Source: Octopus vulgaris
Lineage: Eukaryota
NCBI GenBank assembly: GCA_951406725.2
Contig: OX597832.1
Location: 17,794,001 to 17,858,000 of the forward strand
Direction of reading: 5' to 3'
Length of the DNA: 64,000 nucleotides
Shown: one piece after another, positions 3,840 to 52,045 of the stretch
Numbering within the stretch: position 1 is the stretch's first letter
Layout: every line of letters begins with the position of its first letter
Position numbers and translations under genes: made by a program
The notes under the pieces: generated by a model
Database searches by the model: none
Told to the model about the DNA's origin: nothing
What the model saw: the letters and a program-made list of their open reading frames with translations, nothing else

Positions 3840-4290
3840 TTGTTGGGGTGACAAACACAGACACAGACACACATACATATACATACACACACACACACAC
3901 ACACACACACACACACACACACACACACACACTTATGTATATATATATAAAGTTAATCCAAACAAGAAAGCACAAAAAACACAACAAAGCGAGGACGTGG
4001 AACAAATATAGTATTTTTGGACGCCCAGGAAAGGAGGCTTTAACGTTTCGAGCGGAGCTCTTCGTCGGAAACATAGGAAAAGGGAAGACGGAGGGAAAAA
4101 ATCGCCAACGGTACACACGAGGTCACATTTTACGGGCTTATTTCATTTTTCGTCTACCAAATACACTCACAAGGCTTTGGTCGGCCGAGGCTATAGTAGA
4201 CGACACTTTCCCAAGGTGTCCCGCAGTGGGAATGAACCCTGAACCATGTGGCTGGTAAGCAAGCTACTTACCACACCGCCACTCCTGCGC
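3840..4290 (-). mobile_element. SINE family B with an HHR element inserted in its microsatellite
   Basis: Head at 4133-4290 and microsatellite at 3850-3950, interrupted by 3951-4128. Confidence 0.75.
3951..4128 (-). mobile_element. Penelope-like terminal fragment with minimal hammerhead motif
   Basis: Minus 4038-4072 reads ttt-CCGACGA-a-gagc(tcc)gctc-GAAA-cg-TT-aaa; second copy at 21862-22062. Confidence 0.65.
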
Positions 4291-4977
4291 CTATAATAAT
4301 AACTTTATCTTTACGTAAAGTGCCAAACATACGATGCTTAACCATGAGTCTTTGTTATATTTGTTGAAATCATTGAAATCCTTCTCGGTATAAATATACT
4401 TTTCGCTCTTCTACAGTTAAAAATCTCCTCAACTTAAAGCAATATCCGCCCACAAAATCTGCCCCATATGTTCTATGTTAGAAATCGATATTTGAATAAA
4501 ATCAAGGGTTAAAGACTGCTAAAATCGATATCATAACAGATAACTTACCTCATATCATGCACCAGCGTGTCATTATATTCACAGTTCAACATTTCCTCAA
4601 AGGTCATAGCAAGGAAATCATTGAGATAAGAATCTATCACTTACTAATGATATCTTTATCTTTATGGGAGACCGTGTGCCTTTACTTGTAAGAAATTTTT
4701 GACAATGTTTTTCACATCCAACGACATTTTGGACCAATCGTAAATGTAGCGAGAAATGACAGCAGATTTACACGGTTAGCAGCAGATGCTTATTTCGATT
4801 CGTCGCGGCATTTGTTGCTGTTACTGATTATTGATATCAAATAGTGTGTATAAATTAGTAAAATGCACCATATGTGTCATAAAAAAGCAAATAGGCATGC
4901 ATAAATACATACATACATACGTGCACACATACATGCATCATCTGTGTGTGTATGCTTTTATATGTGTGTGTATGTTT

Positions 4978-5594
4978 GTGCGTAACTGGTGCTTTTATTT
5001 AATCGACCCACAAGGGGCTAAACACAGAGATGACAAACAAGGACAGACAAACAGAATAAGTCAATTATATATACCACAGTGCGTAACTGGTACTTATTTA
5101 ATCGACCCCAAATGGAAGACAGGCAAAGTCGAACTCGGCCTAATTTGAACTCAGAACGTAGCGGCAGACGAAATACCTATTTCTTTACTACCCACAAGGG
5201 GCTAAACACAGAGAGGACAAACAAGGACAGACAAACAGAATAAGTCAATTATATCGACCCTACTGCGTAACTGGTACTTATTTAATCGACCCCGAAAGGA
5301 TAAAAGGTAAAGTCGATCTCGGCAGAATTTGAAGTCAGAACGTAGCGGCAGACAAAATACCTGTTTCTTTACTACCCACAAGGGGCTAAACACAGAGGAG
5401 ACAAACAAAGACAGACAGACGGATTAAGTCGATTATATCGACCCCAGTGCGTAACTGGTACTTAATTTATCGACCGCGAAAGGATGAAAGGCAAAGTCGA
5501 CCTCGGCGGAATTTGAACTCAGAACGTAACGGCAGACTGAATACGGATACACATTTCGCCCGGCGTGTTAACGTTTCTGCCAGCACGCCGCCTT
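4978..5594 (-). mobile_element. Tandem multimer of SINE family A
   Basis: One headed unit (5361-5594) followed by ~184-bp headless units (5177-5360, ~5008-5176) and a partial unit. Confidence 0.85.
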
Positions 5595-5823
5595 CAAAAT
5601 CGTCCAATGTTTCTTTTGAATGTACACGCACTGTCCGGCAGAAGTTCTTTCTTGTTTTGTCACCTCTTACCGTTCCTCCAGCACAAGTTTTACAAAATAT
5701 TGGAATGATGTAATACCGCCTCCATGCATCATATTCATTAAGAATTGTCTTCTCCAAAACTTAGTTACTCTGTAAACCCGTCGTCGCACATATTATTCCC
5801 GCAGCTATCGGCTTTGGACTTAC

Positions 5824-5910
5824 TGCACTTTGAACGGAACTTTGACGGTGTAAATCTTTCCGGTCGCAGACTACTTGCAGGAATTCTGGACTCTGCTCCA
5901 TCCACCAGAC
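5824..5910 (-). other. Candidate 87-nt exon (or start of a terminal exon with stop at 5765)
   Basis: Acceptor tttttatttgtAG at 5911-5912; donor GCA|GTAAGT at 5818-5823; 29 codons, open in two frames; complex non-repetitive sequence. Confidence 0.35.
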
Positions 5911-6814
5911 CTACAAATAAAAATTTAGTAAATAAACAAATAAAAATTAGTAGAGGCAATAAGTAGTATTAATTAGTGCAGTTTTGGTGCTAGAGGAACA
6001 TGTCACCATTAGTAGCGGAAGCTTTTGTTAAAAGTGGTGTTGGTGGGAAGAGTACACAACTATGAGGGAGTATGGTGACTTCCGTCTAGTTTTCGATTTT
6101 ATTATCGTCAAATCGAGCAAGCCTTTCAGTTTTACGTTTTGTTTATTTTACTTTCACTTTTTATATTTGCTACCCAAATGTTGTGAGATAGATAAACTCT
6201 ATTGTGAGTTTGTATTGGATATAATATGACTGAGAGGACAGACGGGATTGATGGCTTATTTACACTGTAGACAGACTTTTGGCGACATGTCTGCAAGGAT
6301 AAAAAAAAACAAACAAACAGAGGGAAAAACAGAAATAATCAATGAACTAACGAACGAATAGAAGATAAACATGAAAGTAAAATAAACGAAAGACAAAATT
6401 GAAAACAAACAATTAAATCGCATATAAAAAATAATACAGAAAAAAATAAACGTGGTGACACATATTTAGCGTAAATCCTTTTTTTATTAATACTAATATT
6501 ATTCTTATTTTGTTTAATTAGAATGTAAACAGATTAGATATGATTAAACGCCGTAAAAATAAGGCTTAACATTTTATTTCGTGCCCATGTTTTGTGACTT
6601 CATATTCAGAAACGGCGAATAACGGACAACTACCTAAACTATAAGTAGCCATGTTTGTGTAATTATGAAGAGAAAGTCTCTATAATGCAGTTTAGACATT
6701 CGTAAGCTGGTTATATGTCACCTGCGCAAAATGTTCCATATTCTCTTTATGTTCTAGATTTAAGGCCAAATTGTTCAGTTTGTTTAATTGATAGATAATT
6801 AAAATATTACGGAG

Positions 6815-7109
6815 ATATACTTGCATAGCAAGTGATTTGATCTGAGATCGTGTACTGAAACGAAAACAATTGCAGCGTGGAAGGCGTTTGTAAGCCATTT
6901 AAGAAACACACAAAAGCCGTTCGATTCACTTCAACATTTAAGTTTAATTTGTCAAAATATTTTCGTCGCTTTAAGACCGCGACCTGTTCAATGACAAAAA
7001 TCTGTGCTACATCTCTGCATCCGTGATGCAGTACGGACTTTTGTCAGTGAACAGGTAGCGGTCTTAAAGCGACGAAAATATTTTGACAAATTAAACTTAA
7101 ATGTTGAAG
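6815..7109. mobile_element. Penelope-like fold-back element, 71-bp inverted arms each with an HHR-like motif
   Basis: 6929-6999 is the reverse complement of 7039-7109 apart from ~2 mismatches. Confidence 0.75.
7040..7090 (+). ncRNA. Minimal type I hammerhead-like motif with G3-C8 core variant
   Basis: tttgtca-GTGAACA-g-gtagc(ggtcttaaa)gcgac-GAAA-atat-TT-tgacaaa: 7-bp stem I, palindromic AAUAUU stem III. Confidence 0.6.
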
Positions 7110-50745: not shown

Positions 50746-50867
50746 AGCATTACCAACACGCTCTTATTATTATTATTATTATTATTATTATTATTAGTAG
50801 TAGTAGTAGTAGTAGTAGTAGTAGTAGTAGTAGTAGTAGCAGTAGTATTTTATCAATATTATACGTA

Positions 50868-51098
50868 AATTTCTTTATTGCCCACAGGGAGTGAAACATA
50901 GAGGGGACAAGCAAGGACAGACAAAGGGATAAAGTCGATGACATCGACCACAGTGCACAACTGGTACTTATTTAATTGACCCTGAAAGGATGAAAAGCAA
51001 AGTCGATCTCGGCGGAATTTGAACTCAGAACGTAACGGCAGACGAAATAGCGCTAAGCATGCCACCCGGCGTACTAACGATCCTACCAGCTCGCCGCC
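50868..51098 (-). mobile_element. SINE family A, full length
   Basis: Consensus match. Confidence 0.85.
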
Positions 51099-51155
51099 AT
51101 GGTTACTGTGTATTATTATATTCTTTTATATATATATATATATATATATATATAT

Positions 51156-51700
51156 AATAAATATAAGAGAGTGGTCACTATATTGATCACCCTAGCACCA
51201 GTTAATCCAAAAGGTTTCAACCACGAAAAATACATGTTTCCCATGAAAGCCAGTACGACTGTTAGCTCACACGGACAGGGCAAATAAAAAATAACAAAAA
51301 TACAGATTATTTTGGGACAATTGTTTCGCTATCAATGAATTAAATGTAATACATTTAATACATTTAATACATTTAATACATTTAATTCATTGATAGCGAA
51401 ACAATTGTCCCAAAATAATCTGTATTTTTGTTATTTTTTATTTGCCCTGTCCGTGTGAGCTAACAGTCGTACTGGCTTTCATGGGAAACATGTATTTTTC
51501 GTGGTTGAAACCTTTTGGATTAACTGGTGCTAGGGTGATCAATATAGTGACCACTCTCTTATATTTATTTTGTGAAAATATTATAATATGTTATAAAATA
51601 TTATAATAATCCAGGTTTCTCGTAGCACTAGGCCACTTGGTGTGGAATAAATATACTATTAAATTAGTATCTAATTCTCTCACCCTTATTAATTATTATT
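51156..51700. mobile_element. PLE-type fold-back with apparently perfect 193-bp inverted arms
   Basis: 51156-51348 is the reverse complement of 51377-51569; loop of AATACATTT repeats; HHR 3' half GAAA-caattg-TC at 51398-51409. Confidence 0.85.
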
Positions 51701-51745
51701 ATATATATATATATATATATATATATATATATATATATGCTATTA

Positions 51746-52045
51746 TATAAATAACTTATAAACGAGGGCAACAGAAAAAAATTCCAATACCAAATATGCT
51801 GAGAATAGACTTTAAATCGTCAATAACCACACTATAAGCACGCGTCATTCATCAATATAAGCACGCGTCAAACTGATGAATATTATGTGGTTATTGACGA
51901 TTTAAAGTCTATTCTCGGCATATTTGGCATTGGAATTTTTTCTGTTGCCCTTGTTTATAAGTGGTTTATAAATTTCTCCTTAAAAGGTATTTTTTAATAT
52001 GCTGGCTACTGATAAAATATTTTTTGAAAATGTTTATCCTATATT
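51746..52045. mobile_element. PLE-type fold-back with ~85-bp arms
   Basis: 51746-51831 / 51886-51970; loop contains duplicated TATAAGCACGCGTCA and CTGATGA. Confidence 0.75.

Follow-up and report, generated by a model that had tools for sequence, protein, structure and literature searches.

What produces the many hammerhead ribozyme (HHR) remnants of an AT-rich stretch of the Octopus vulgaris genome, and are they separate elements or pieces of larger ones? The stretch analysed here, hereafter the window, spans 64,000 nucleotides (assembly GCA_951406725.2, contig OX597832.1, positions 17,794,001 to 17,858,000 of the forward strand). A sequence-only reading had noticed about 12 minimal HHR islands in its (TA)n tracts and had ascribed them to a very abundant and varied population of non-autonomous, Penelope-type retroelements that standard annotation would miss. 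The islands are copies of ten minimal-HHR repeat families, four of which are the 3′ ends of Penelope-like elements (PLEs), and all ten were very probably inserted by Penelope-type proteins with reverse transcriptase (RT) and GIY-YIG endonuclease (EN) domains. One of them, family C, is likely a short interspersed nuclear element (SINE) mobilised by PLEs. A broader proposition also appears probable: that family C is tRNA-derived, transcribed by RNA polymerase III (Pol III), equipped with a PLE-derived HHR 3′ end, copied by a PLE RT rather than by a long interspersed nuclear element (LINE), and present in tens of thousands of copies and in several related species, and that this genome samples all four Watson–Crick pairs at core positions 3 and 8, including a natural G3–C8 family.

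All 13 named sites in the window carry either the whole HHR anatomy (stem I, core of 7 nt, stem II, GAAA, short stem III, UH) or its 3′ half, within 5 nt of where it had been noticed (Table 1). They belong to ten multi-copy families (A to J), with sites 4038 and 21929 pairing as family A and sites 20571 and 37646 as family B; the islands and the multiplicity of families proposed for them are therefore real. Most window copies are decayed or halved (10/13 have core changes, broken stems or truncations), and intact HHR copies exist in the genome (2.80 Gb) for all ten families. A strict descriptor (intact core, stem I of at least 4 pairs, stem II of at least 2) recovers three of the 13 sites (7047, 15638 and 21933), compared with none in each of 12 local dinucleotide shuffles, whereas looser settings are only weakly enriched (4 matches vs a mean of 1.75, maximum 4; 5 vs 1.67, maximum 4; 8 vs 2.3, maximum 5). 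An earlier descriptor lacking the extra base after position 9 found one site. As the descriptor was composed after the sites were known, it was rerun on 60 arbitrary 10-kb stretches at round-number coordinates (600 kb), giving 11 strict matches at 5 loci vs 0, 1, 0, 0 and 0 in five shuffles, with 7 of the 11 coming from one tandem array; a looser setting gave 16 vs 2, 5, 2, 0 and 4. Rfam provides no HHR support in the window, the 150 matches listed of 721 being microsatellite noise, and repeat-finder output is likewise dominated by microsatellites.

Linkage to coding sequence identifies the parents of four families. Loci were drawn from the genome for comparison (421 loci, 1.9 Mb, biased to these families; L-numbers), and the best 150 of 6136 candidates from a genome search for GIY-YIG were scored, many of them lying in 781-aa open frames. 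Locus L079 is a full-length PLE, arranged as pseudo-long terminal repeat (pLTR), open reading frame (ORF) 1, ORF2 and pLTR between (TA)n tracts, with a U3–A8 HHR-like motif in both pLTRs; a sister 781-aa frame at L080 matches RVT_1 and GIY-YIG. This PLE family is young, with many 781-aa open frames of identical length and ORF1 upstream. In 11 of 30 GIY-YIG loci the EN is followed downstream, on the sense strand, by an HHR whose core is intact. On the same strand, EN-like coding sequence ends approximately 0.3–0.85 kb upstream of family B (five loci: L113, L116, L134, L136, L300), family F (four: L195, L284, L296, L300) and family H (five: L263, L330, L331, L337, L340). For family G, L406 and L407 have 2.5 kb upstream in common, including a broken RT–EN frame with a CxCX5C linker (a by-eye motif reading), which is a mark of the Hydra clade (PMC8557442). 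In Pfam, GIY-YIG is above the cut-off for the ORF behind F, and one family-linked ORF has as its nearest named relative a sequence labelled Octopus vulgaris, at 87% identity. Because the sequence upstream of B, F, G and H leads into RT/GIY-YIG ORFs, these families are 5′-truncated 3′ ends of coding PLEs and not separate non-autonomous elements. The attribution to Penelope-type elements is thereby upheld, whereas the term non-autonomous is wrong for these four families; only I and C were found to be non-coding. A CX2-5CXXC-type linker, as in the EN-containing (EN+) PLE clades Penelope/Poseidon, Neptune, Nematis and Hydra covered in part of PMC8557442, likewise occurs in the ORFs behind B and in the 781-aa family; clade names drawn from such linker motifs, without a tree, are leads only. 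An apparent ORF link for family E at L263 was rejected, as the ORF belongs to family H and E is inserted behind it.

The insertion scars point to the same machinery. Signatures of PLE insertion include 5′ truncation, an inverted 5′ copy, a one-sided 30–40 bp tail and (TA)n bias (PMC8557442). The same truncation, inversion and (TA)n bias are seen here, and the one-sided tail was measured for family C only. An inverted 5′ partner is present in J (19/29), D (18/24), I (19/24), B (13/29), H (12/24), G (11/24), C (9/24) and F (7/24), thus in eight families, and fold-backs are seen in family E. Because 51.5% of random points in the window lie within 250 nt of a (TA)n tract, proximity to such tracts was dropped as a measure in favour of family-level 3′ ends. 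A (TA)n tract adjoins the 3′ end in A (29/29), D (24/24), F (23/24), G (21/24), H (16/24), I (14/24), J (16/29) and B (11/29), well over the background of 16.5% in every counted family except C (2/24). The proposed association with (TA)n tracts thus applies to the 3′ ends of most families and fails for family C.

Several results weigh against a Penelope-type origin of all ten families. Families A, C, D, E, I and J showed no ORF link in 25–55 loci apiece, chosen by likeness to the short window copies; for A, D, E and J, all of them short pLTR-like units, the loci compared yielded no parent element. Pfam matches are weak for the ORFs behind B and H (RVT_1, E = 0.013 and 0.035, and no GIY-YIG match). 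Family A is an approximately 225-nt unit with fixed ends and without inversions (0/29), so that only its HHR and (TA)n ends speak for PLE dependence. Stem III, palindromic or near-palindromic in nine families, forms no palindrome in family B, and on cofolding the dimer that would be expected appears for D and in part for I, with other folds for A, C, F and J.

A mechanism can be proposed by analogy with the Anolis PLE, for which nicking of AT-rich DNA, an internal start of reverse transcription and a protein-assisted HHR are described (PMC11167929). A PLE protein would nick AT-rich or (TA)n DNA, and reverse transcription would start from a fixed site close to the 3′ end of the pLTR. An early stop or fold-back after 100–300 nt, the usual outcome, would leave a short stub, which would retain the HHR because the HHR sits near the end at which reverse transcription starts, and which would often gain an inverted 5′ arm and a one-sided tail of about 30 nt. 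Three template types may feed this process: ORF-coding PLEs (B, F, G and H), ORF-less tandem arrays (I) and a tRNA-headed RNA (C), the last probably made by Pol III and copied by a putative PLE partner. Solitary or inverted copies likely have an inert HHR; head-to-head pairs would be unable to dimerise in cis, as one arm is antisense. Cleavage as a dimer would be expected to require tandem or multi-pLTR transcripts, action in trans or the help of a protein. Activity of minimal HHRs is low, even as dimers (PMC4209133).

Whether catalysis matters at all is raised by the core variants. Across families, positions 3 and 8 remain Watson–Crick paired as C–G, U–A, G–C and possibly A–U. The U3–A8 core, which is natural in known HHRs (PMC4209133; PMC3088659), marks families F and H. 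G3–C8 occurs in 37 of 42 family J cores from selected loci and in 4 of 7 incidental matches; in runs of four organisms, two with very thin cover there, no difference from the J core reached the 20% listing threshold, and an 11-row alignment of J shows decay and no covariation within the family. The same reciprocal swap has been engineered (C3G/G8C), with partial rescue of cleavage in a PLE HHR (parts of PMC11167929 and PMC3884650), whereas here it is the natural majority state of J and is seen in other organisms too; in open-licence main texts G3–C8 was found only as that engineered mutant and not as a natural form. C at position 4 is dominant in A and G (11/14 incidental A copies), and C at position 9 is found in 16/30 B copies; U4C lowers in vitro activity (PMC3088659). 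A candidate A3–U8 HHR with a 2-bp stem II lies behind a GIY-YIG ORF at L051 (two copies) and L130, i.e., in three copies at two loci only.

These variants allow a reading in which the HHR fold is retained as a signal for protein binding or for processing, catalysis being dispensable and G3–C8, C4 and C9 being tolerated drift rather than selected states. Mutation of the Anolis PLE HHR is without effect on insertion in vitro and no RNA-seq ends map to its cut site (PMC11167929), and the frequencies of C4 and C9 fit the same idea. Against drift stand the maintained pairing of positions 3 and 8 and the pairing of stems I and II in 15 multi-locus families, the latter partly a product of descriptor construction. 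Dispensable catalysis is a serious possibility, albeit not the favoured one; it concerns function only and is compatible with insertion by PLE proteins. The presence of natural G3–C8, U3–A8, C4 and C9 families beside arrays able to form dimers in cis makes the need for PLE hammerhead cleavage testable in one genome.

Family C combines an approximately 76-nt tRNA-like head, an (AAT)n tract and an HHR tail, in that order. Within the head, a match to the A box starts at base 8 and one to the B box follows 45 nt further on. Of 30 loci selected by the head alone, 22 carry the tail downstream (21 by regular expression), all heads met incidentally (L122, L146, L150 and L327) adjoin tails, and contigs from three other organisms bridge head and tail. 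In the window, a single 10-nt target duplication encloses both parts (Table 1), so that family C, short, non-coding and dispersed, was inserted as one unit. Inversions in this family, including the window copy, break within the head or at its first base, indicating that the head was part of the copied template. Among 28 head-to-head pairings (from 27 loci, L122 entering twice), 17 share a flank word of at least 8 nt, compared with 3.8% of 754 mismatched pairs, and in 27 of the 28 one arm is about 30 nt longer. A run of four T is present on the sense strand of 3/21 units and on the antisense strand of 16/21; the scarcity on the sense strand is as expected for a Pol III transcript. Family C therefore has the scars of EN+ PLE insertion units (PMC8557442), yet lacks coding capacity.

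Family C could instead be a chance chimera, formed by repeated insertion of PLE stubs into an ordinary, LINE-dependent SINE at its (AAT)n tail. PLEs favour microsatellites (PMC8557442), 8 of the 30 head-selected loci have no nearby tail, ending in long tracts, other insertions or remnants, and no partner PLE, i.e., no ORF ending in the family C tail, was found among the 421 loci. The enclosing duplication, the break points of the inversions, the incidental heads and the bridging contigs of other organisms make such a chimera improbable. Also unfavourable to a tRNA-derived SINE, the head is recognised neither by Rfam nor by ARAGORN at its default or at thresholds of 90–95%; a threshold of 85% yields three heads among 11 mostly spurious ARAGORN calls, and a clean copy has neither an HHR nor a tRNA match in Rfam.

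The closest precedent found for a PLE-mobilised family C is provided by the SINE-like HHR repeats Sm-alpha and Sj-alpha of Schistosoma, which likewise unite a Pol III-type promoter and a hammerhead in a short retroposon (part of the review PMC6765202). They are often tandem and released by cleavage, whereas family C is dispersed, its HHR is of the minimal PLE type and its integration scars are those of PLEs. No PLE-mobilised tRNA SINE is reported in the open-licence literature searched, a search to which Repbase, Dfam and SINEBase are external; the title of a 1994 paper announces three octopus tRNA-derived SINEs, so family C may already have a name. If correct, movement of a SINE by PLE machinery would extend the SINE–LINE partnership rule to a third retroelement class, and family C would offer a short natural template for mapping what a PLE RT recognises. 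The tRNA-like head had escaped the sequence-only reading, which also did not single out the G3–C8 swap. A different short repeat with a tRNA-like head, in which no HHR tail was noticed, lies at L265:430–800.

Family I consists of a 534-nt unit repeated in tandem up to 6 times, each unit holding a complete HHR whose core is intact and whose helix II domain measures 49 nt; no PLE ORF occurs in 8/8 arrays examined, and 6/8 have an inverted 5′ copy. It resembles non-LTR retrozymes, ORF-less tandem HHR repeats proposed to be PLE-derived (parts of PMC7229834 and bioRxiv 10.64898/2026.07.22.740005), in being an ORF-less tandem repeat. It differs in its long helix II, its PLE-type inverted 5′ arm and a unit exceeding the quoted 150–450 bp. 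A second retrozyme-like family, also fitting that description, is seen at L141:2100–4600, a 359-nt tandem array with five intact HHRs and two inverted copies. These arrays lend weight to the emphasis of the sequence-only reading, extended to the proposal that all families are non-autonomous retrozymes spread via self-cleaved circular RNAs. Families B, F, G and H, however, extend into PLE ORFs, outside family I the copies seen are solitary or inverted and not arrayed, and the common A and G forms carry C4 and about half of B carries C9; retrozymes are thus an unlikely explanation for the whole set. That the fold-backs are miniature inverted-repeat DNA transposons or chance look-alikes in AT-rich DNA, as the inverted-repeat form of many copies, the poor yield of loose descriptors and the silence of Rfam might suggest, is hardly credible given unequal arms, variable break points, 5′-to-5′ joins and the strict matches in the independent 600 kb, and is refuted for B, F, G and H by ORF linkage.

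Insertion by PLE proteins would account for a large repeat population. For each window site the best 40 candidates of a genome search were scored; first-look candidates, which are not copy numbers, total 186 for J, 3152 for A, 900 for B, 4971 for C, 915 for D, 1740 for E, 1793 for F, 725 for G, 2128 for H and 1207 for I. The 600-kb sample contains 31 BLAST matches to the ten families, inverted arms counted separately, which corresponds to roughly 1.4 × 10^5 fragments genome-wide provided that the sample is typical, in keeping with the high abundance proposed. The window has 15 matches by the same method, with queries drawn from the window itself. Across the 421 loci, 15 multi-locus HHR families have intact cores, and E and G are seen additionally. 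Further HHR families occur at L038, L039, L030 and related loci, with helix II domains of 54, 59 and 69 nt; those of E and I are 58 and 49 nt, and the window copies of both are cut within them.

Thousands of solitary minimal HHRs per genome, in many families and with few inside full PLEs, have been reported (PMC4209133), and dense PLE hammerheads are a known phenomenon, of ordinary density for invertebrates. The HHRs described here share with those of EN+ PLE pLTRs (PMC4209133) the type I topology, the short stem I, the unpaired base between 9 and 10.1, the palindromic 15.2–16.2 and the U3–A8 covariant; the sections of that paper compared contain no fixed G3–C8 family, no helix II domains of 49–69 nt and no tRNA-headed family. 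The tRNA-headed family and the G3–C8 family are variants, not found in the open literature, of an otherwise known phenomenon. That annotation would miss the elements was overstated: an O. vulgaris repeat annotation lists 31 Penelope-like families as recently active, although neither "hammerhead" nor "ribozyme" occurs in the main text.

Table 1. Hammerhead-bearing features of the window (positions are those of the window).
Feature	Positions	Strand	Details
Family A unit (about 225 nt, fixed ends)	3950..4132	-	HHR 4038-4073, C at core position 4
Family J head-to-head pair	6804..7109		HHRs 6948-6998 (-) and 7040-7090 (+); family core G3-C8
Left copy of 10-nt target duplication, family C insertion	10910..10919		
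Family C pLTR-like tail	10920..11074	-	Decayed HHR 10983-11026
Family C (AAT)n linker	11075..11195	-	Sequence
Family C tRNA-like head	11196..11272	-	A-box and B-box matches
Family C inverted 5′-truncated tail, one-sided extension of about 30 nt	11272..11369	+	Abuts first base of head
Right copy of 10-nt target duplication, family C insertion	11370..11379		
Family D (young, copies about 99% identical), inverted 5′ arm	15515..15840	+	HHR 15634-15676, intact core
Family B stub	20502..20788	+	HHR 20568-20610, C at position 9
Family A unit	21860..22075	+	HHR 21928-21963, intact core
Family B stub, inverted 5′ arm	37520..37810	+	HHR 37646-37688, weakened stem I
Family E fold-back	38186..38342		HHR 3′ half 38211-38239 (-); helix II domain of 58 nt in full copies elsewhere
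Family F stub	39265..39520	+	HHR 39397-39434, U3-A8 core, decayed stem II
Family G stub	42665..42745	+	HHR 42675-42712
Family H head-to-head pair	42890..43217		U3-A8 HHR remains 43045-43078 (-) and 43100-43119 (+) (half)
Family I head-to-head pair, both arms cut within helix II	51140..51700		Halves 51312-51332 (-) and 51393-51413 (+)

Other repeats are interspersed with these features. RT and endonuclease fragments at 48880–50763 of the window (minus strand) were considered as a PLE and rejected; they belong to a broken LINE-type element (RVT_1 fragment, E = 2e-07; endonuclease-like fragment, E = 0.001) unrelated to the HHR families. A short repeat of very high abundance is present as partial copies in tandem at 4990–5600 and, inverted, at 46248–46481. 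An inverted repeat at 51790–52045 is akin to the 3′ part of another HHR-bearing family (L042, L299 and L400), the window copy being without a complete HHR.

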